A DNA stretch of 33,624 nucleotides from Candidatus Nealsonbacteria bacterium CG11_big_fil_rev_8_21_14_0_20_37_68 (GCA_002787295.1 PCWJ01000024.1:29931-63554); one strand, 5' to 3'. Counted from the first letter of the stretch, positions 1 through 33,624 are shown. The notes: generated from the sequence alone by a model not told the origin. Made by a program: numbers and translations.

Positions 1-2054
1 TTCTTTGAGCATTTGATTTGTTTCCTTTTTGTTTCTACCAGTAAAGAACCGCATTTTGGACAGGTTTCATTAATGGGTTTATCCCATAAAGCAAAATCGC
101 ATTTTGGCCAATTGGAACAGCCATAAAATATTTTTCTCTTTTTAGTTCTTTTCTCCGTGATTTCTCCGCTTTTGCAGTTTGGACACTTAATGCCCAAAGT
201 ATTTTTTTCAAGGGACTCGGTGTATTTACACTTCGGGAATTTAGAACAGGCATAAAATTCTCCAAATTTCCCCAATCTGATTACCAAAGAAGCTTTGCAT
301 TTTGGACAGATTTTTTTAGTTGGTTTTTCGGTAAATTCTTTTTTAGAAACTTCCTCATATTTATGCTTCAGGTTTTCTTCGAAGGGGATATAAAATTCTT
401 GAATTATTGGCGTCCATTTTTTTGAACCTTTGGCAATTTCGTCAAGCGATTCCTCCATCTCGGCCGTAAATTTAATATCAACAATTTTTGGAAAGTGTTC
501 CACCAAAAGATCGTTAACTACGGTTCCAATTTCGGTTGGTTTAAATTTTCTATTTTCGTCTTTTTCAATATAATTTCTTTCCTGAACAGTAGATAATATC
601 GGAGCATAAGTTGAAGGTCTCCCAATTCCATTTTCCTCCAGAGCTTTAATTAGAGTGGCTTCTGAATAGCGAGGAGGGGGTTGAGTAAAATGTTGAGAAG
701 GGATTAATTTTAACAGCTCTAAAATTTCATCGTTTTCAAGCGGAGGCAGCTCGTTTTCTTCAAACTTGATTTGGTAAACCTTTAAAAAGCCATCAAATTT
801 CAAAATCTGTCCCGTTGCACGAAAGCCGTACCCCGCACCAGAACCTTCGGTTCGGTACGGGGCAGGATTTTTTGCCTCGATGTCAACAGTTGTTGAATCA
901 AAAATTGCCTGACCCATCTGGCACGCAATAAATCTTCGCCAAATTAAATCATAAAGTCGAAAACCTTGCTCATCTAATTTGGCTTTTAGTGTTTCTGGAG
1001 TTCCATCGGCAAAAGTCGGTCTTATTGCCTCATGGGCTTCTTGGACTCTACCTTTTGCCTTATATTTTCTCAAAAAGCCTGCCCAATAATTTTTGCCATA
1101 TTTTTCGGTAATAAATTTTTTAGCCGCAAATAAAGATAAATCAGAAAGATTTAGAGAATCTGTTCGGTGATACGTCGTTAGTCCTTTTTCATAAAGTTGT
1201 TGGGCAACCCCCATTGTAAATTTGGCTGGAAAATGAAATCTTTGCCAAGCTTCTTGTTGTAAAGTAGAAGTTGTAAAAGGCGGCAGGGGATTCCTTTTTA
1301 CCTCTTTTTTTTCAACGCTTTGAACTTTATATTCTGCTCCCTCCAGATCTTTTACAATTTCATCTGCCTCTTTTTTAGTTTTGATTCCCAGTTTCGGAAT
1401 AATTTTATCATCCTTTTTGACTAATATAGACTCAAACCAACGAGAAACGTTCTCGTTGGTTTTTTTGAGCTGGGCGATAATAGTCCAGTACTCTTGCGGT
1501 ATGAAATTTTGTATTTCTCGTTCGCGCTCAACAACTAACCTTACTGTCACCGATTGAACTCTTCCAGCAGAAAGACCCCTGGCTATTTTTTTCCATAAAA
1601 ATGGAGATAATTTATAGCCGACAATTCTATCCAAAATCCTTCTTGTTTGTTGAGCATCGACCAGATTCATATCAATTTTCCTTGGATTTTTAAGGGCTTG
1701 GTCAATTGCTGATTTGGTAATTTCATGAAAAACAATTCGCTGGTAAGGTTTTTCTCCGTCTAAATTCAAAATCTGAGCCAAATGCCAAGCAATGGCTTCG
1801 CCTTCCCGATCGGGATCAGTAGCCAAAATAGTGAGTTCGGCTTTTTGACTTTCCTTGGCTAAACTTTGAACAATCTTTTTAGCTTTTTCTGGGATAATAT
1901 ATTTTGGTTTAAAATTCTCTTCAATATCAATTCCAAGTTCATCTTCCGGTAAATCTCTAATGTGACCATAAGAAGAGAGAACCCGATATTTGGGACCCAG
2001 AAAATCCTGGAGAGTTCTTGATTTGGTTGGTGACTCAACGAGTATTAATTGCAT
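1..2054 (-). CDS. topA: DNA topoisomerase I (3' end runs off the window start)
   Basis: Absent from the ORF track because no stop codon lies inside the window. Hand translation of the minus strand from ATG 2054-2052 gives MQLILVESPTKSRTLQDFLGPKYRVLSSYGHIRDLPEDELGIDIE. It continues with TOPRIM DPDREGEAIAWH, the active-site Tyr region GLTTYHRTDS, then three C4 zinc ribbons (CPKCKAS..CSKFPKC, CPNCKSG..CSNWPKC, CPKCGS..). The start overlaps the dprA 3' end by 20 nt. Confidence 0.93.
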   Translation of the reverse strand, partial: MQLILVESPTKSRTLQDFLGPKYRVLSSYGHIRDLPEDELGIDIEENFKPKYIIPEKAKKIVQSLAKESQKAELTILATDPDREGEAIAWHLAQILNLDGEKPYQRIVFHEITKSAIDQALKNPRKIDMNLVDAQQTRRILDRIVGYKLSPFLWKKIARGLSAGRVQSVTVRLVVEREREIQNFIPQEYWTIIAQLKKTNENVSRWFESILVKKDDKIIPKLGIKTKKEADEIVKDLEGAEYKVQSVEKKEVKRNPLPPFTTSTLQQEAWQRFHFPAKFTMGVAQQLYEKGLTTYHRTDSLNLSDLSLFAAKKFITEKYGKNYWAGFLRKYKAKGRVQEAHEAIRPTFADGTPETLKAKLDEQGFRLYDLIWRRFIACQMGQAIFDSTTVDIEAKNPAPYRTEGSGAGYGFRATGQILKFDGFLKVYQIKFEENELPPLENDEILELLKLIPSQHFTQPPPRYSEATLIKALEENGIGRPSTYAPILSTVQERNYIEKDENRKFKPTEIGTVVNDLLVEHFPKIVDIKFTAEMEESLDEIAKGSKKWTPIIQEFYIPFEENLKHKYEEVSKKEFTEKPTKKICPKCKASLVIRLGKFGEFYACSKFPKCKYTESLEKNTLGIKCPNCKSGEITEKRTKKRKIFYGCSNWPKCDFALWDKPINETCPKCGSLLVETKRKQIKCSK
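831..862. repeat. GC-rich hairpin in-frame in topA
   Basis: CCCCGCACCAGAACC-ttc-GGTTCGGTACGGGG. The left end CCCGCACCAGA is identical to 14285-14295. Confidence 0.75.
1434..1462. repeat. 29-nt perfect palindrome in topA
   Basis: AAACCAACGAGAA-acg-TTCTCGTTGGTTT, with 13-bp arms. Confidence 0.85.
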
Positions 2055-2916
2055 AGATATTGTTTCCTAAGTTTCTTATCTTACCTTTTATTTCCAAAAT
2101 AACAAGGCAGCTTACAACTTTTTGTGGGGGTAACTTAGTTTTTTCAATAATTTTGTCGATGTATAATCCCTCCTCTTTTAATGAGTTCAAAATTAAATTT
2201 TCTTCGAGAGTCTCTCCGGTTACTTGCCTGTCGGAACTAGGTTCCGACAGGCCTAAATTTAGTTCTTTTAGAATATCATTAGCGTTTTCAGCCAACCATG
2301 CTCCTTGCTTTATTAAATAATGACAACCCTTAGAGTTTGAAGAATGGATTGGGCCGGGAACAGCAAAAACTTTCCTTCCTTGTTTTTTTGCCCACTCCGC
2401 GGTGATTAAAGCTCCTGACTTTTGCTTGGCTTCTATCACTAAAACCCCCAAAGAAAGACCGGAAATTATTCTATTTCTTTGGGGGAAAGTAAATTTGGAT
2501 CCGCAAGTTCCGGGTGGGTATTCAGAAATTAAACAGCCGCCAGATTCAATAATTTTTTCTGCTAATTTTAAATTGGTTTGAGGGTATATGCTTTTTTCGT
2601 CCAGGCCGGTTCCCAAGACGGCAATTGTTCTTCCTCCGCTTTCCAGGGCAGCCTGATGGGAAAATGTATCAATTCCCGGAGCAAGACCGGAGACAATTGT
2701 TAATCCAGCTTCAGCTAAATCACCGGCAATTTCCAGAGCCACCTGCTTTCCGTAGCTGGAGCACAATCTGGTTCCAACCACGGCAAAACAATTTTCCTCG
2801 GGCAAAATTTTTCCTTTAGCGTAAAGAATTTTTGGCGAGTTTTTTATTTTCTTTAAAATTTTTGGATAAGCTCCGTCTTTTATTGAAATTTCTTTGATTT
2901 CATTTAGCATTTCCAA
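2035..2916 (-). CDS. dprA: DNA processing protein DprA/Smf
   Basis: 293-aa ORF with the Rossmann-like DprA core (VVGTR..SYG, GLAPGIDTFSHQAAL, GGRTIAVLGTGLD, YPPGT, FPQRNRIISGLS, LVIEA..KSGALITA). The dprA-topA gene order is a common arrangement. Confidence 0.9.
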   Translation of the reverse strand: MEMLNEIKEISIKDGAYPKILKKIKNSPKILYAKGKILPEENCFAVVGTRLCSSYGKQVALEIAGDLAEAGLTIVSGLAPGIDTFSHQAALESGGRTIAVLGTGLDEKSIYPQTNLKLAEKIIESGGCLISEYPPGTCGSKFTFPQRNRIISGLSLGVLVIEAKQKSGALITAEWAKKQGRKVFAVPGPIHSSNSKGCHYLIKQGAWLAENANDILKELNLGLSEPSSDRQVTGETLEENLILNSLKEEGLYIDKIIEKTKLPPQKVVSCLVILEIKGKIRNLGNNIYAINTR

Positions 2917-3013: not shown

Positions 3014-5050
3014 ATGGCTGTGACCAAACAAGAAGTTAAACAGAGAATTGAGAAACTCAAAAAGGTGATTAACCATCATCGGTATTTATATCACGTATTG
3101 AATAAGTCCGAAATTTCTGATGCCGCCTTAGATTCTTTAAAACACGAACTTTATAAATTAGAACAAAAATTTCCAGAGTTTATTACTTCCGATTCTCCAA
3201 CTCAAAGAGTGGCTGGCAAACCCCTGGAAGGATTTGAAAAAGTAAAACATAAAGTTCCGATGCTTTCCATTGAGGATGTTTTCTCTGCTGAGGAACTTAA
3301 AGATTGGGAAGATTATTTAAAAAGATTAATTCCATCTACTGCCTTTGATTATTTTGCCGAACTAAAGATTGATGGATTTGCCATCACTTTAATTTATAAG
3401 AATGGCTTATTTACTACCGGAGCCACCAGGGGAAATGGTCTGGTGGGGGAGGATGTTACCCAAAATTTAAAAACAATCGAGAGCATCCCCCTGAAATTAG
3501 AGGTTCATGGTAAATTGCCAAATACAGAGATTGAGGAAAATCTTAAAAAATTAATCAAAAGAGGAAAAATTGAAATCAGGGGAGAGGTTTTTATGGGAAA
3601 AAAAGACTTTGGAAAGCTGAATGAAGAATTAAAAAAAAGAGGAGAAAAAATCTATGCTAACCCCAGGAATTTAGCCGCGGGTTCCATCCGACAATTAGAC
3701 CCAAAATTAGCTGCTTCTCGGCCCCTTAGATTTTTGGCTTACGATATAGTGACTGATTTTGGTCAAACCCAACACTCTCAAGAACATCAAATTTTGCCGG
3801 TCCTAGGTTTTATTACCGATCTGGGAAAAGAATGTAAAAATTTAAATGAGGTCGTAGATTATCGGAAAGAAATAGCCAAAAAAAGAGAAACTCTTCCTTT
3901 TCAAATTGATGGGGTGGTGGTGAACGTGGACAACAATTCGCTTTTTAAAAAATTGGGAGTGGTAGGGAAAAGCCCTCGGGGAATCAGGGCTTTTAAATTT
4001 TCTCCAAAACAAGCCACTACTAAAGTTTTGGATATAAAACTGCAGATAGGAAGAACGGGAGCTATAACACCGGTTGCTCACTTGGAGCCGGTTGAGGTTG
4101 GGGGGGTAACCATTACTCGAGCCACTTTGCACAATGAAGATGAAATAAAAAGATCGGGAGTAAAAATTGGAGATACGGTTATTGTTGAAAGGGCGGGCGA
4201 TGTGATTCCAGCCGTTGCTAAAGTTTTAAAAGAGCTCAGGACAGGAAAAGAAAAAGAATTTCATTTTCCCGAAAAATGTCCGGTTTGCGGCCGGAACTTA
4301 GTTAAACCATCTGGAGAAGCAGTTTGGCGATGCAAAAATCGAAACTGCGGAGCCATAAAAAGAGAATTTTTATACCATTTTGCTTCAAAAAAAGCTTTTG
4401 ATATCGAAGGATTGGGACCAAAGATTATTGATCAATTAATAGACGAGAATTTAATTTTTAGTACCCCTGATTTGTTTGAACTAAAAGAAGGAGACTTAAT
4501 TCCCTTGAAAAGGTTTGCCGAAAAATCAGCCAAAAATTTAATTGAATCTATTGAAATTGCAAAAAAAATCTCCTTGGCAAGGTTTATCTATGGCTTAGGG
4601 ATTCGTCACGTTGGCGAAGAGATAGCGATTGCAATATCTAATTATTTTGGTTCCCTTGATAAATTAAAAGAAGCTAACTTACAAGATCTTGAGAAAATTC
4701 CAGATATCGGCGAGGTGGTAGCTAAAAGCATATATTTTTGGTTTAGAGATAAGAAAAACTTAAAATTAATCAAAGATTTATTAAAAGCTGGAGTGAAAAT
4801 TATTTTTCCCCAAAAAATAAAAACTCAATTAAAAAGAAAAACTTTTGTTTTTACCGGAGCCTTAAAAACTATGGCTAGAGATGAGGCTGAAAACGAAGTG
4901 AGAGCATTTGGGGGGGCAGTTTCTTCTTCGGTTTCCAAAGAAACAGATTATGTAGTGGTGGGCGAATCCCCCGGTTCAAAAACAGAGAAAGCCAAAAAAT
5001 TAGGAGTAAAAATTATTTCAGAAAAAGAATTTTTAAAAATGATAAAATAA
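3014..5050 (+). CDS. ligA: NAD-dependent DNA ligase
   Basis: 678 aa. Adenylation motif ELKIDGFAI, OB domain, Cys4 zinc finger CPVCGRNL..WRCKNRNC, HhH region and C-terminal BRCT (FVFTGAL..). Confidence 0.95.
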   Translation: MAVTKQEVKQRIEKLKKVINHHRYLYHVLNKSEISDAALDSLKHELYKLEQKFPEFITSDSPTQRVAGKPLEGFEKVKHKVPMLSIEDVFSAEELKDWEDYLKRLIPSTAFDYFAELKIDGFAITLIYKNGLFTTGATRGNGLVGEDVTQNLKTIESIPLKLEVHGKLPNTEIEENLKKLIKRGKIEIRGEVFMGKKDFGKLNEELKKRGEKIYANPRNLAAGSIRQLDPKLAASRPLRFLAYDIVTDFGQTQHSQEHQILPVLGFITDLGKECKNLNEVVDYRKEIAKKRETLPFQIDGVVVNVDNNSLFKKLGVVGKSPRGIRAFKFSPKQATTKVLDIKLQIGRTGAITPVAHLEPVEVGGVTITRATLHNEDEIKRSGVKIGDTVIVERAGDVIPAVAKVLKELRTGKEKEFHFPEKCPVCGRNLVKPSGEAVWRCKNRNCGAIKREFLYHFASKKAFDIEGLGPKIIDQLIDENLIFSTPDLFELKEGDLIPLKRFAEKSAKNLIESIEIAKKISLARFIYGLGIRHVGEEIAIAISNYFGSLDKLKEANLQDLEKIPDIGEVVAKSIYFWFRDKKNLKLIKDLLKAGVKIIFPQKIKTQLKRKTFVFTGALKTMARDEAENEVRAFGGAVSSSVSKETDYVVVGESPGSKTEKAKKLGVKIISEKEFLKMIK

Positions 5051-5056
5051 AACCGA

Positions 5057-5073
5057 CGGAGAACAGTTCTCCG
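5057..5073. terminator. Hairpin between convergent ligA and mfd
   Basis: CGGAGAAC-a-GTTCTCCG. On the minus strand it is followed by tcggTTTTATTTTA, so it fits best as the mfd terminator. Confidence 0.6.
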
Positions 5074-17482: not shown

Positions 17483-19078
17483 ATGACCAAATCGAAGATT
17501 TTCCTCTATTTTTGTCTTTCTTTTATTGGGGGAATATTTCTGAGTTCTACTATCTTTGTTCCTGCGCTGGGATTCTCGCTAGGTAGTAGAGTTTATCTCT
17601 TACTACCGGGTTTAATTTTGGGGATTTTGCTAATTTCGATACTTTGGCAATATAAAAAAATTGTTGTTATTGGATTTTGTATTCTATTTTTGGTTGCCGG
17701 AATTTACCGTCACCAACAAGCCGAATTAAAAATTATAAATAACGAATTAAAATCCCACAACGATACCGGCAAAGAGATTATTTTAACAGGGGTAATTTCA
17801 AAAGAAGCCGACATAAGGTCAAATAATATAAAACTAATAATAACACCTGAAGAAATTCAAAATGCCGCAAACCTTCAAAATGCCGAGAACCGTTCTCGGC
17901 ATTTTGAAGGTAGGGTTTTGGTTACAACTAATCGATATCCTGAATATCAATATGGGGATAAATTAAAAATTACCGGAGAATTAAAAGCTCCCATCGAATT
18001 CGAAGATTTTAATTATAAAGATTATTTAGCTAAAGATGGAATTTATTCGGTAATGTACTATCCCAAAATTAAGCTATTAGAAAGAGAAAAATCCATAGGT
18101 CCGACCTATGTAATTTACAGCCAAATTTTATCTTTTAAAAATAAGTTGATGGAAAGCATTTATCAAAATCTTTCTCCGCCCCAATCTTCAATTCTGGGAG
18201 CGGTAATTTTGGGAGATAAAAGAAAAATTTCTGATGAGTGGAAACAAAAACTAAACATTGTCGGGGTGAGACACATTACTGCCGTTTCCGGAATGCATGT
18301 AGCAATTTTAACTACTATTTTAATGACTCTGTTGCTTGGTCTTGGTTTTTGGCGGCAGCAGGCTTTTTATTTTTCAATAGTCTTTGTTGCTTTTTTTGTA
18401 ATTATGACCGGTCTTCAGCCTTCGGCAATAAGAGCCGGAATTATGGGAGGATTGTTTTTGCTGGCCCAATATTTGGGAAGGCAGAAATTTGCCACCAATG
18501 CTCTTTTGTTGGCGGCAGTGGTAATGTTGGCAATTAATCCCTTGCTTTTAAAATTAGATGTTGGTTTTCAGTTATCCTTTTTGGCAGTTCTGGGAATCAT
18601 TTATTTAATGCCTATTTTTCAATATTATTTTCGAAAGTGGTTATCACCAGAGTGGTTTCAAAAATGTTGGTGGCTAAGTTGGCTACCGATAAAATCTATC
18701 GGCGACATTTTGGCTATGACCCTATCCGCTCAAGTTTTCACCTTGCCGATTTTAATTTATAATTTTGGCTATATGTCTTTAGTGGCTCCGATAACCAACC
18801 TTTTAATAGTTCCGTTTTTGTCCTACATTATGGGATTGGGTTTTCTTTTTGGAATTTTTGGAATAATCTCCCAGTTTCTGGGTTGGGTTTTTTCCTGGCC
18901 AGCCTGGTTACTTTTAACCTACTTAACAAAAATAGTAGATTTCTTTTCTCAAATTCCTTTGGCTTTTATAACCATAGAAAATTTGCATTGGGCATGGTTA
19001 ATAATTGCCTATTTAATTTTGGGCTATTTTACTTGGCGAATATCGCAAAAGCAAAAATTAAAGTTTTTAAATTATTAA
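17483..19078 (+). CDS. comEC: ComEC/Rec2-family DNA uptake channel (no C-terminal metallo-beta-lactamase domain)
   Basis: 531 aa, polytopic. N-terminal OB-like region (GRVLVTT..YGDKLKITGELK) then the competence domain (GVRHITAVSGMHVAIL). Contains a 39-nt palindrome at 17872-17910. Confidence 0.85.
   Translation: MTKSKIFLYFCLSFIGGIFLSSTIFVPALGFSLGSRVYLLLPGLILGILLISILWQYKKIVVIGFCILFLVAGIYRHQQAELKIINNELKSHNDTGKEIILTGVISKEADIRSNNIKLIITPEEIQNAANLQNAENRSRHFEGRVLVTTNRYPEYQYGDKLKITGELKAPIEFEDFNYKDYLAKDGIYSVMYYPKIKLLEREKSIGPTYVIYSQILSFKNKLMESIYQNLSPPQSSILGAVILGDKRKISDEWKQKLNIVGVRHITAVSGMHVAILTTILMTLLLGLGFWRQQAFYFSIVFVAFFVIMTGLQPSAIRAGIMGGLFLLAQYLGRQKFATNALLLAAVVMLAINPLLLKLDVGFQLSFLAVLGIIYLMPIFQYYFRKWLSPEWFQKCWWLSWLPIKSIGDILAMTLSAQVFTLPILIYNFGYMSLVAPITNLLIVPFLSYIMGLGFLFGIFGIISQFLGWVFSWPAWLLLTYLTKIVDFFSQIPLAFITIENLHWAWLIIAYLILGYFTWRISQKQKLKFLNY
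17872..17910. repeat. 39-nt perfect palindrome in comEC
   Basis: CCTTCAAAATGCCGAGAAC-c-GTTCTCGGCATTTTGAAGG, with 19-bp arms. TTCAAAATGCCG is also present as a direct repeat at 17856-17867. Confidence 0.9.
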
Positions 19079-31748: not shown

Positions 31749-32480
31749 GTGTTAAAAAATGTTTTTAAAATTTTAGCAGTGTTTATTGTTGGGATGGTTG
31801 GCGGAATTTTTGCTGACCAAATTTTATGGCCCTACTTTATAGAAAGGCCTCTTTTTTATGAATATAGATTAGAGCAGACCCCGGTTAATGTTATCGAAAA
31901 AAAAGAAATTTTTATTCAAGAAAACGTTGCTCTTCAGGAAGCAGTAAAAAAAGTAGAAAAAGCAGTGGTATGGGTAAGGACCGAAACTAAAACTGGAAAA
32001 ATTTTAGAGGGTTCGGGCTTGGTAATGACTTCGGACGGTTTAATTGTCACTCTGGCTGATTTAGTTCCGGCAGGTTCCGATTTTACTTTTTTAATTGAGG
32101 GGAAGCCGATGAGTTATCAAATTTTAGCTCGAGATTTTCAAAACAATCTGGCTTTAATTAAAGTTGAGGGAGCCAACTTATCTACGGCTAGCTTTGGTAG
32201 TTTGGATAAAATCAATACTGGAGAAAGAGTATTTTTGGTGGGGACGATTTCTCAGCAAAAGCCCGGTGGAGAAAAAGAGATTATAAAAATAGTAAACGAG
32301 GGGGTAATTAAATACTTTGACCAGAATTTAATTCATACCAATATCTTTGAGAAATATACATTAGCAGGTTCTCCTCTGTTTAACATCGAAGGAAATGTTT
32401 TGGGACTAAACGAAGTAGATAAAGAAGGGAAAATTATCGCCATTCCCATTTCCATCATCCGCGAATTCATCAAACTCTAA
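31749..32480 (+). CDS. Membrane-anchored trypsin-fold protein with all three catalytic residues replaced (pseudoprotease)
   Basis: 243 aa with a GTG start. Aligns by eye to the protease domain of the htrA-like gene. It has TLADLV for TNRHVV, NNLALIKV for KDLAVIKV and LAGSPL for GNSGGPL, and lacks a PDZ domain. Confidence 0.7.
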   Translation: MLKNVFKILAVFIVGMVGGIFADQILWPYFIERPLFYEYRLEQTPVNVIEKKEIFIQENVALQEAVKKVEKAVVWVRTETKTGKILEGSGLVMTSDGLIVTLADLVPAGSDFTFLIEGKPMSYQILARDFQNNLALIKVEGANLSTASFGSLDKINTGERVFLVGTISQQKPGGEKEIIKIVNEGVIKYFDQNLIHTNIFEKYTLAGSPLFNIEGNVLGLNEVDKEGKIIAIPISIIREFIKL

Positions 32481-32487
32481 TTTCCCG

Positions 32488-32504
32488 CCGGGAAGTCTTC
32501 CCGG
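32488..32504. repeat. REP-like palindrome, left of the RAYT gene
   Basis: 8-bp arms CCGGGAAG/CTTCCCGG around one central t. Lies 8 nt after the stop of the upstream gene. Confidence 0.85.
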
Positions 32505-32646: not shown

Positions 32647-32682
32647 GGGATGGCTCCCCGGCACGTGCCGGGGAGCCATCCC
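32647..32682. repeat. Perfect 36-bp palindrome
   Basis: GGGATGGCTCCCCGGCAC|GTGCCGGGGAGCCATCCC, ending 33 nt upstream of the RAYT ATG. Confidence 0.9.
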
Positions 32683-32714: not shown

Positions 32715-33452
32715 ATGCCAATAAAACATCCACAATTTGTTAATGGAGAAATCTATCACATTATAGTTAGGGGAATTGCCGGTCAAAAAACTTTTTTAGA
32801 CGATAAAGATCGTCTGAGATATCTTTTTAATTTGTATAAATTTAATAATAAAAATATAGTTATTCGTAATCCCTCTTACCGGGAAGCCATCCCGGTAGTC
32901 TACCGGGATGGCTTCCCGGTGCTGTTGGAGACAGAAAGGGAAAAGCCAAGAGATTTATTAATTGAACTTTTAGCCGTTTGTTTAGTGCCCAATCATATTC
33001 ATTTATTAGTTCGTCAGGCTGACGACGGCGGTGTTTCTTTATTTTTCCAAAAAATGGGCGGTTATGCCAGTTATTTTAATAAAAAATACCAAAGATTTGG
33101 TTCTTTATTTCAGCGACCATTTAAAGCTATTCATATCAAAACTAATGACCAATTATTAATTGTCACTACCTATATTCATTTAAATTTAATTGATTTAATT
33201 GAGCCAAACTGGAAAATTAAGGGTATTTCCGATCCTCAAAAGATTATGGATTTTTTAGAAACTTATCCTTGGTCAAGCTATCCTTATTATTTGGGAAAAT
33301 CAAATCTTTCTTGGCTAATTAATTCTGATTTTCTAAATAAAATTTTAAAAAGGCCCGAGGATTTTCGGAATTTTGTTAAGGCTCGGATTTTTCAGAAAAC
33401 TGAACTAAAAAATTTTTTAAAGAAGACCAAAGAAATTGAGAAGTTTTTCTGA
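32715..33452 (+). CDS. REP-associated tyrosine transposase-like protein (HUH / Y1, IS200-like fold)
   Basis: 245 aa. N-terminal YHIIVRG, HUH motif in PNHIHLLV, and a Tyr ~57 aa downstream in TTYIHLN. No TnpB partner. Flanked and interrupted by related palindromes. Confidence 0.8.
   Translation: MPIKHPQFVNGEIYHIIVRGIAGQKTFLDDKDRLRYLFNLYKFNNKNIVIRNPSYREAIPVVYRDGFPVLLETEREKPRDLLIELLAVCLVPNHIHLLVRQADDGGVSLFFQKMGGYASYFNKKYQRFGSLFQRPFKAIHIKTNDQLLIVTTYIHLNLIDLIEPNWKIKGISDPQKIMDFLETYPWSSYPYYLGKSNLSWLINSDFLNKILKRPEDFRNFVKARIFQKTELKNFLKKTKEIEKFF
32878..32920. repeat. 43-nt palindrome inside the RAYT CDS
   Basis: ACCGGGAAGCCATCCCGGTA-gtc-TACCGGGATGGCTTCCCGGT, with 20-bp perfect arms. Each arm is itself a small hairpin. 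Confidence 0.9.
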
Positions 33453-33455
33453 TAG

Positions 33456-33480
33456 TCTACCGGGAAGACTTCCCGGTAGA
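33456..33480. repeat. REP-like palindrome, right of the RAYT gene
   Basis: 12-bp perfect arms TCTACCGGGAAG/CTTCCCGGTAGA around a central a. Starts 4 nt after the RAYT stop. Confidence 0.88.
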
Positions 33481-33624
33481 ATTTGTCAACAGGTTATCCA
33501 CAGCTAATGTACTTTTGGACTGTTTCTATTTGAAAATTAAGTGAATTTAAGTTGATTTGACAAATTTCTTTGAACCATTAATATCAAAATTGTCTGATTT
33601 TAAACTCTTAAAACCTAAAAAAAA

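Follow-up and report, generated by a model that had tools for sequence, protein, structure and literature searches.

The stretch of DNA analysed here (the window; 33,624 nucleotides, nt) is from Candidatus Nealsonbacteria bacterium CG11_big_fil_rev_8_21_14_0_20_37_68 (GCA_002787295.1, PCWJ01000024.1:29931-63554). The gene at 32715..33452 (+ strand) encodes a RAYT-like Y1 HUH enzyme of 245 amino acids (aa), and within its coding sequence, at 32878..32920 (+), there is an in-frame, 43-nt perfect palindrome that encodes residues 55-69 and consists of two hairpin units arranged as an inverted doublet. Hairpins of related sequence, resembling repetitive extragenic palindromes (REPs), are located on both sides of the gene. 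The in-gene palindrome, its relationship to the flanking hairpins and its occurrence in homologous genes are the subject of this analysis.

The palindrome reads ACCGGGAAGCCATCCCGGTAG-T-CTACCGGGATGGCTTCCCGGT, and an inverted-repeat search of the whole window identified it as the longest inverted repeat present. Its arms (32878-32898 and 32900-32920) are 21 nt in length, 100% complementary and separated by a 1-nt centre. The initial annotation had described 20-base pair (bp) arms separated by gtc; this was the same object, although the arms had been drawn slightly short. The sequence confirmed that the palindrome is in frame and that the open reading frame (ORF) 32715-33452 stays open throughout despite its presence. 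The codon register is TAC CGG GAA GCC ATC CCG GTA, GTC, TAC CGG GAT GGC TTC CCG GTG, each left-arm codon being the reverse complement of a right-arm codon, and the product is YREAIPV-V-YRDGFPV (peptide YREAIPVVYRDGFPV). The segment is GC-rich, with CGG and CCG codons, and is set within an AT-rich gene.

The two units of the doublet are TACCGGGA-AGCCA-TCCCGGTA (unit 1, 32877-32897, +) and TACCGGGA-TGGCT-TCCCGGTg (unit 2, 32901-32921, +). The imperfection in unit 1 (A.A) is mirrored by that in unit 2 (T.T), as is expected for an inverted duplication of the REPIN type. The stem TACCGGGA/TCCCGGTA is common to both in-gene units and to the hairpins that flank the gene, in agreement with the earlier proposal of a REP-like doublet.

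The unit motif CCGGGAWGNCWTCCCGG occurred five times in the window, always between 32488 and 33476, compared to an expectation of 0.01; none of 100 shuffled sequences reached five occurrences. Folded as RNA, the palindrome segment had an energy of -46.7 kcal/mol (z -8.5), and folded as DNA, one of -27 kcal/mol (z -9.0); none of 200 shuffles equalled the value in either case. From the motif count and the folding energies it was concluded that the palindrome is not a chance occurrence. No Rfam family was matched at its gathering score anywhere in the window, and the microRNA-like, low-scoring Rfam matches over the palindromes were rejected as generic hairpin matches. An intrinsic terminator was also rejected, as the in-gene palindrome has no T-run. 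The terminator scan flagged a further in-gene stem-loop at 32794-32819 (AGACGAT-AAAG-ATCGTCT, 11 pairs counting G.T, then a T-rich run), which covers the codons for DDKDRLRY in helix alpha1 and shows no evident conservation among homologues.

Three hairpins flank the gene in the window. A 36-nt perfect palindrome with 18-nt arms (32647..32682, +) ends approximately 32 nt before the ATG; it is itself a doublet (CCGGGA-TGGCT-CCCCGG / CCGGGG-AGCCA-TCCC), in which the order of the units is opposite to that of the in-gene doublet. A singlet hairpin (32488..32504, +), which reads CCGGGAAG-T-CTTCCCGG and is followed by GTAG, begins 8 nt past the end of the Trypsin_2-like gene that lies upstream (31749-32480). 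Downstream, a singlet hairpin with a 12-bp stem (33456..33480, +; TCTACCGGGAAG-A-CTTCCCGGTAGA) begins 3 nt past the stop codon. Since TAGTC lies directly 5' of this downstream hairpin, the 13-mer TAGTCTACCGGGA that occupies the centre of the in-gene palindrome (32896-32908) is repeated at 33453-33465; the initial annotation had correctly noted that the right half of the palindrome and the downstream REP open with the same string. The window hairpins bear GTAG/CTAC at their stem ends (CCCGGTAG / CTACCGGG).

Analysis of the encoded protein was consistent with its earlier designation as a RAYT/IS200-like transposase. The Pfam Y1_Tnp family (PF01797) was matched at 29.9 bits, compared to a cut-off of 23, with aa 74-155 aligned to profile positions 32-119; the match is confined to these residues because a long linker interrupts the N-terminal part of the domain. 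In a protein alignment, H94-I-H96 of the HUH motif and Y153 (TYIHxN) were invariant across 31 homologues, and the window protein retains every residue that is invariant in this set. By its position, Tyr153 (in TYIHLN) is the putative catalytic residue, and in the AlphaFold model it sits on the helix 144-161. The best Foldseek match of that model was 4ER8, the structure of Escherichia coli TnpA-REP bound to a REP hairpin (E 6.4e-6, template modelling (TM) score 0.63 on the target); the next matches, 2A6O, 2XO6, 2VJV and others, include IS608 and ISDra2 TnpA structures.

The mean predicted local distance difference test (pLDDT) score of the AlphaFold model was 75.9. Residues 51-75, with the exception of residue 65, had values below 50; they fall between the helix 30-42 and the strand 83-90, and two short strands, 61-64 and 67-70, are drawn in this region. 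As previously stated, the palindrome-encoded peptide follows the N-terminal strand (EIYHIIV, aa 12-18) and precedes the HUH motif (H94/H96). The structure prediction that had been suggested as a check placed residues 55-69 in this low-confidence loop or linker and not in the catalytic core.

A protein search returned 373 homologues, mostly of 230-250 aa, and DNA was obtained for 166 homologous loci, which are designated by L-numbers. Hairpin statistics were calculated for 129 unique homologous genes from Patescibacteria (about 40-98% identity). A perfect stem of at least 8 bp was present in the linker between helix alpha1 and the HUH motif in 62% of these genes, and one of at least 10 bp in 41%, with a maximum of 23 bp. 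Windows of equal size elsewhere in these genes gave 1.7% and 0%, respectively, and codon-shuffled linkers gave 1.7%. The linker, defined as the segment from the 'FN' end of helix alpha1 to the HUH strand, was 114-195 nt in length and its hairpin varied in sequence from gene to gene, with 51 distinct arm types that include GTCCGAGA-TGGCT-TCTCGGAC, ACTACTCGGGA-TGGCT-TCCCGAGTAGT, TGGTCGGGGTG-T-CACCCCGACCA and CCGCGGAGAAC-A-GTTCTCCGCGG. Some relatives had doublets with 20-23-nt arms, similar to that of the window gene.

The relationship between the linker hairpin and the gene flanks was determined for the 90 genes whose linker hairpin had a stem of 7 bp or more. A matching upstream hairpin was found in 62 of the 90 genes, its 3' end a median of 15 nt before the ATG, and a matching downstream hairpin in 61, starting a median of 5 nt past the stop; in 52 genes both were present. 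In 70 of 80 cases the flanks of a gene contained the 8-nt inner arm of its own linker hairpin, compared to 2.0 of 80 when the arms were swapped between genes. Loss of the in-gene hairpin showed a weak association with loss of the flanking hairpins that did not reach significance (odds ratio 2.3, p 0.14). The density of matching hairpins was 4.2/kb upstream and 7.1/kb downstream, falling to 0.04/kb in the distal flanks (426 kb of homologous loci). A layout of three hairpins, located before the ATG, in the alpha1-HUH linker and after the stop, is standard for this Patescibacteria family.

Comparison of the linker hairpins indicated that it is the DNA that is kept, not the peptide. The core GAGAAC-N-GTTCTC was read in all three codon phases, as REQFS in 16 genes, ENSSRS in five and TRTVLV in four, and the 93 in-gene stems together had only seven internal mismatches, among which G.T was not in excess of A.C. 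Translation in three frames and near mismatch-free stems that lack a G.T excess together point to DNA as the conserved feature; an RNA-type signature, in the form of a sense-strand G.U excess, was looked for in these stems and not found, there being almost no mismatches. Residue changes followed the base pairing. In L002 and L087 a CGG-to-CGA change was offset by CCG-to-TCG (Pro to Ser), and in L001 the replacement of Ala/Gly by Val/Asn resulted from paired GTT/AAC. The protein alignment of the closest clade shows YRExIPV-xLRDGFPV, and in distant members this position is filled by different peptides of about the same length. The initial annotation had reasoned that conservation of these residues in homologues without palindromic DNA would refute its reading; the opposite was observed, since the palindromic DNA is kept while the peptide, and even the frame, changes.

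The in-gene and flanking hairpins changed together. In L162, a CAGGGA/TCCCTG stem with an AGTTA/TAACT loop was found in the gene and in its flanks, in L163 and L164 a GCGGGA/TCCCGC stem was likewise changed in the gene and the flanks, and in L166 the loop AGTTA was present at all three sites. Among ten members of the clade, the two-small-hairpin pairing had 81% of cells paired and a covariation score that was reached by none of 500 shuffles, and the long-hairpin pairing had nine pairs with double changes and a score reached by two of 500 shuffles. Covariation therefore supported both the two-hairpin and the long-hairpin pairing.

The doublet was common to relatives at 70-78% identity, with one or other unit decayed in L164, L165, L166 and L084, and relatives at 53-67% identity had the TGGCT unit only. 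Within the doublet, the window has the codon TAC (Tyr63) at a position where the nine relatives aligned as DNA encode Leu or Met (CTC, CTG, CTT, TTG, TTA or ATG); the two-base change to TAC made the palindrome centre perfect and recreated the downstream 13-mer. A further sign of ongoing change in this lineage was seen at the 3' end of the gene. A contig of the same species, L161, had one difference in about 950 nt (99.9% identical) and then an abrupt divergence that starts at window position 33419, inside the final ~30 nt of the gene and about 35 nt upstream of the hairpin. Beyond this point (L161 10700-10804, window 33419-33624), L161 has a family-consensus C-terminus and two tandem TGGCT hairpins, after which the contig ends, whereas the window has a different tail, in which the last ~10 residues deviate from the family consensus, and a singlet hairpin. 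The comparison identified the point of divergence as a recombination or replacement junction that adjoins the hairpins. Across the family, subfamilies differed in where the hairpin-encoded peptide falls with respect to the basic part of the linker; together with the use of three frames, this difference suggests that the linker hairpin was acquired more than once.

These results are most readily explained if the palindrome is an in-frame, inverted-doublet copy of the hairpin that is recognised by the RAYT-like Y1 HUH enzyme, set within a linker that tolerates it and kept in step with the flanking copies, and we consider this explanation probable. Binding of the hairpins by the enzyme is suggested by the co-variation and by analogy with REP/RAYT systems. 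The enzyme would prefer to act in cis, its substrates being hairpins that extrude from single-stranded DNA close to its own gene, and the hairpins would be repeatedly re-copied or converted, either by cleavage and strand transfer or by fold-back copying. The linker would be a disordered, length-variable surface loop that tolerates any hairpin-encoded peptide in any frame. When the loops of the flanking copies were compared with that of the in-gene copy, their orientation was approximately 50:50 on both sides, although the many 1-nt loops make orientation nearly meaningless, and no fixed orientation of the upstream or downstream hairpins relative to the in-gene copy was found. The proposed copying or conversion would account for both the perfect arms and this random flip/flop of the loops; near-perfect stems and a ~50:50 loop orientation fit a DNA palindrome that is regenerated or corrected, not an RNA helix held by selection alone. 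A likely consequence would be self-limited expression, through the -47 kcal/mol mRNA hairpin and the provision of a binding or cleavage site for the gene's own product.

Several observations weigh against this explanation. The in-gene copy was absent or decayed in roughly 40% of homologues, most of which keep the flanking hairpins, and it is therefore dispensable; insertion in cis with subsequent tolerance is inseparable from a selected function. In the close clade, synonymous sites were no better conserved within the palindrome than in the rest of the gene (0.66 compared to 0.66), which indicates that the palindrome evolves and is not frozen. All five class-A units in the 33.6 kb of this genome sit at the gene. 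The protein itself scored 27.1 bits against the NCBIfam RAYT equivalog model NF047646, far below the cut-off of 80, and for this reason it is called RAYT-like, that is, a distant relative and not, as judged from its sequence, an equivalog of the proteobacterial RAYTs.

A stronger proposal can be made, namely that the in-gene hairpin is a selected cis-site at which the HUH enzyme binds or nicks its own coding sequence or mRNA, thereby limiting its own dose, and continually rewrites the three copies. This proposal is put forward only tentatively. If it were true, the enzyme and its hairpin would form a self-referential unit, and the recognition code could be read from the 51 arm types paired with the protein variants.

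The main rival explanation is that the hairpins are a selected autoregulatory element, with operator-like sites in the transcript or in transient single-stranded DNA, and it differs mainly in attributing the match between the copies to selection and not to copying. Output of a dangerous nuclease would then be throttled either by binding of the enzyme to these sites or by the -47 kcal/mol mRNA hairpin on its own, through ribosome stalling or an effect on RNA processing. The hairpin has the same position in most members at 40-98% identity and co-varies with the 5' and 3' copies, the upstream copy ends ~15 nt before the ATG, where the ribosome-binding region is expected, and ~5 nt separate the stop from the downstream copy; in addition, the RNA fold is very stable and the frame was kept at all examined loci. 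However, perfect Watson-Crick stems without G.U enrichment are unlike selected RNA helices, the loop orientation is random, and the differing position relative to the basic segment, with the use of three frames, suggests several independent acquisitions. Moreover, the ~40% of genes without an in-gene copy keep their flanking hairpins, and a T-run was present at only 12 of 63 downstream hairpins. On balance, this explanation is regarded as unlikely, if still a serious competitor.

It is considerably less probable that the palindrome is an internal transposon end or recombination site, at which crossover with the flanking hairpins would silence the gene or mobilise part of it by deletion or inversion; the nick site or origin inside pT181 repC or phiX174 gene A would be a parallel. 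The same hairpin does occur at the gene borders, the whole gene is inverted relative to its ClpB/Trypsin_2 neighbours in L092 and L107, and the 3' end has been replaced between two 99.9%-identical strains. In the latter case, however, the breakpoint is about 35 nt upstream of the hairpin and not at the hairpin. No split, frameshifted or partly inverted genes were found among the 21 loci that failed the first motif filter and were mapped, in all of which the N- and C-terminal parts were collinear and in frame, and 140 further loci had a single open ORF across all motifs. Near-identical, multi-copy elements were not seen.

The initial annotation had offered two explanations, that a REP doublet had recently inserted by accident into this one copy or that the gene is in decay, and both now appear very improbable. 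The GC-rich composition of the segment and the non-consensus C-terminal residues are as such explanations would predict, but a linker hairpin is present family-wide, the doublet is found in relatives down to about 70% identity and single units in those at 53-67%, and an insertion of 43 nt alone would not preserve the frame. Decay is contradicted by the retention of all of the residues that are invariant in the 31 homologues and by the collinear, in-frame state of the 21 loci checked. Finally, selection of the peptide YREAIPVVYRDGFPV, for example as a beta-hairpin, with the DNA palindrome incidental, is scarcely credible: RDGFP-like peptides recur in relatives and AlphaFold draws two short strands, but the same DNA core encodes unrelated peptides in three frames and also occurs in the non-coding flanks, the residue changes in L001 and in L002/L087 track base-pair compensation, and the pLDDT is below 50.

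In-frame hairpins were also observed in other genes. In a census of 931 kb of the homologous loci, 271 strong, GC-rich perfect hairpins were counted, of which 56 were in RAYT-like linkers (about 2% of the sequence) and 32 were inside other long ORFs. Palindromes with 13-24-bp arms in other long ORFs were found in L003 (6824-6862), L151 (1463-1511), L017 (6381-6406) and L035 (777-1437); the one in L003 has the same sequence as the RAYT hairpin of that locus. In the window, the ComEC-like ORF 17483-19078 (+) contains a 41-nt perfect palindrome of the GAGAAC class (17871-17911; ACCTTCAAAATGCCGAGAAC-C-GTTCTCGGCATTTTGAAGGT), which is in frame, encodes LQNAENRSRHFEG and is directly preceded by a 12-nt direct repeat, TTCAAAATGCCG. 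In an alignment of ComEC orthologues this segment was either missing or represented by ENxSR peptides at the same loop, indicating that the ComEC hairpin is a presence/absence polymorphism. A palindrome with a 12-bp stem in the DprA-like ORF 2035-2916 (-), at 2226-2252 (GCCTGTCGGAAC-TAG-GTTCCGACAGGC), occupies an apparent inter-domain stretch and is another candidate in-frame hairpin insertion.

Two further hairpins in the window are located at gene ends. The first, of the GAGAAC-N-GTTCTC class (1434-1462), is followed by a T-run and is terminator-like; the second, also of the GAGAAC class (5057-5073), lies 7 nt past the stop of ORF 3014-5050, between convergent genes. A cognate RAYT-like paralogue for this class is not present in the window. 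The region 265-1859 (~1.6 kb) has almost no ORF of at least 50 aa on either strand and no Rfam match, which is unusual for a gene-dense genome. The closest relatives of the neighbouring gene products (the ClpB-like AAA protein, the Trypsin_2 protein and ComEC) were in metagenome-assembled genomes of Candidatus Nealsonbacteria and other Parcubacteria.

A perfect DnaA-box 9-mer, TTATCCACA (mostly as AGTTATCCACAG), was identified at 33494-33502. This 9-mer was present in 17 of 132 homologous loci, including L002, L019, L062, L084, L085, L099, L120, L149, L162, L164 and L165, always on the strand of the gene and 25-97 nt past its stop. In most cases it was directly after the downstream hairpin and before the TTGACA-type promoter of a conserved gene of ~200 aa that has no Pfam family; in some loci it was also found upstream of the RAYT-like gene. 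A replication origin at this site was rejected, as near-matches to the box were at chance level in the window, although the perfect box was clearly associated with the locus family.

The arrangement described here resembles the REP/RAYT systems (TnpA-REP, 'REPtrons') of Proteobacteria, in which a Y1 HUH gene is flanked by short, GC-rich, gene-specific palindromes that co-vary with it (PMC2817692, PMC8266576). The paralogues of one genome each have their own hairpin type, GTAG/CTAC is found at the stem ends of the window hairpins, and the best structural match, 4ER8, belongs to this group. In the RAYT literature searched, however, REPs are described only as extragenic and flanking, whereas most members of the present family carry an in-frame copy. 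The window protein also has an alpha1-HUH linker that is ~30 aa longer at a total length of 245 aa, and it fails the RAYT equivalog cut-off. The stems are perfect and not bulged, GTAG is not general (18 of 84 in-gene hairpins family-wide, compared to about 10% of random segments), the orientation of the flanking copies is not fixed and dispersed matching copies are sparse. With respect to single-copy, vertical inheritance of RAYTs, several divergent paralogues were found per genome (46-76% identical, none near-identical), each with a distinct hairpin, and the gene follows a conserved ClpB-like/Trypsin_2 pair in many loci, distant paralogue types included. Neither a REP inside a RAYT or IS200 gene nor such elements in Patescibacteria were found in the literature searched, and an in-frame hairpin inside the gene for its own enzyme was not found described there for this enzyme class.

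Features of other systems are also shared. As in REPINs (Bertels and Rainey, PMC3116915), two inverted REP units form one long hairpin. The doublet described here is much smaller than is typical of those elements, with a 3-nt spacer and a total length of 43 nt, and it is located in coding sequence. Identification of the gene as an IS200/IS605 insertion sequence was rejected: both have a Y1 HUH TnpA, hairpins near either end of the gene and a compact size of about 0.8-1 kb, but near-identical copies within genomes were not found, the hairpins do not have the same-strand left-end/right-end arrangement, the ClpB/Trypsin_2 synteny is conserved and the protein is about 100 aa longer.

Rickettsia palindromic elements (RPEs) are in-frame in coding genes, where they occupy permissive loops, are kept in orthologues and are presence/absence polymorphic; they are roughly 100-150 bp in length, and no cognate transposase is known for them. 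The hairpins of this study are similarly ORF-preserving palindromic inserts in a permissive loop, with presence/absence seen for ComEC and probably for DprA and other ORFs, but they are only 17-47 nt in length and their commonest host gene is the putative mobiliser itself. In pT181 RepC and phiX174 gene A, which belong to plasmid and phage replication origins, the nick site or origin lies inside the gene for the nuclease. The similarity is that the coding sequence of an HUH-type nuclease contains the nuclease's cognate hairpin or nick site; the gene examined here differs in being chromosomal and in having three copies of the site, and a replication function was not evidenced.

The family bears on how RAYT-type enzymes recognise and copy their REP partners and are held in check with them; the proteobacterial models have extragenic REPs only. 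With its dozens of specificities, the Patescibacteria family provides a natural data set for the code of hairpin-protein recognition, and a simple test bed for autoregulation or cis-action by HUH enzymes. Caution is required in the interpretation of RDGFP, REQFS and ENSSRS as peptide motifs in these proteins, since they are by-products of DNA structure. The examples in ComEC and DprA suggest that small REP-like palindromes colonise coding sequences in the streamlined genomes of Patescibacteria, which bears on the annotation of these genomes and on the placement of domain boundaries in the proteins that they encode.

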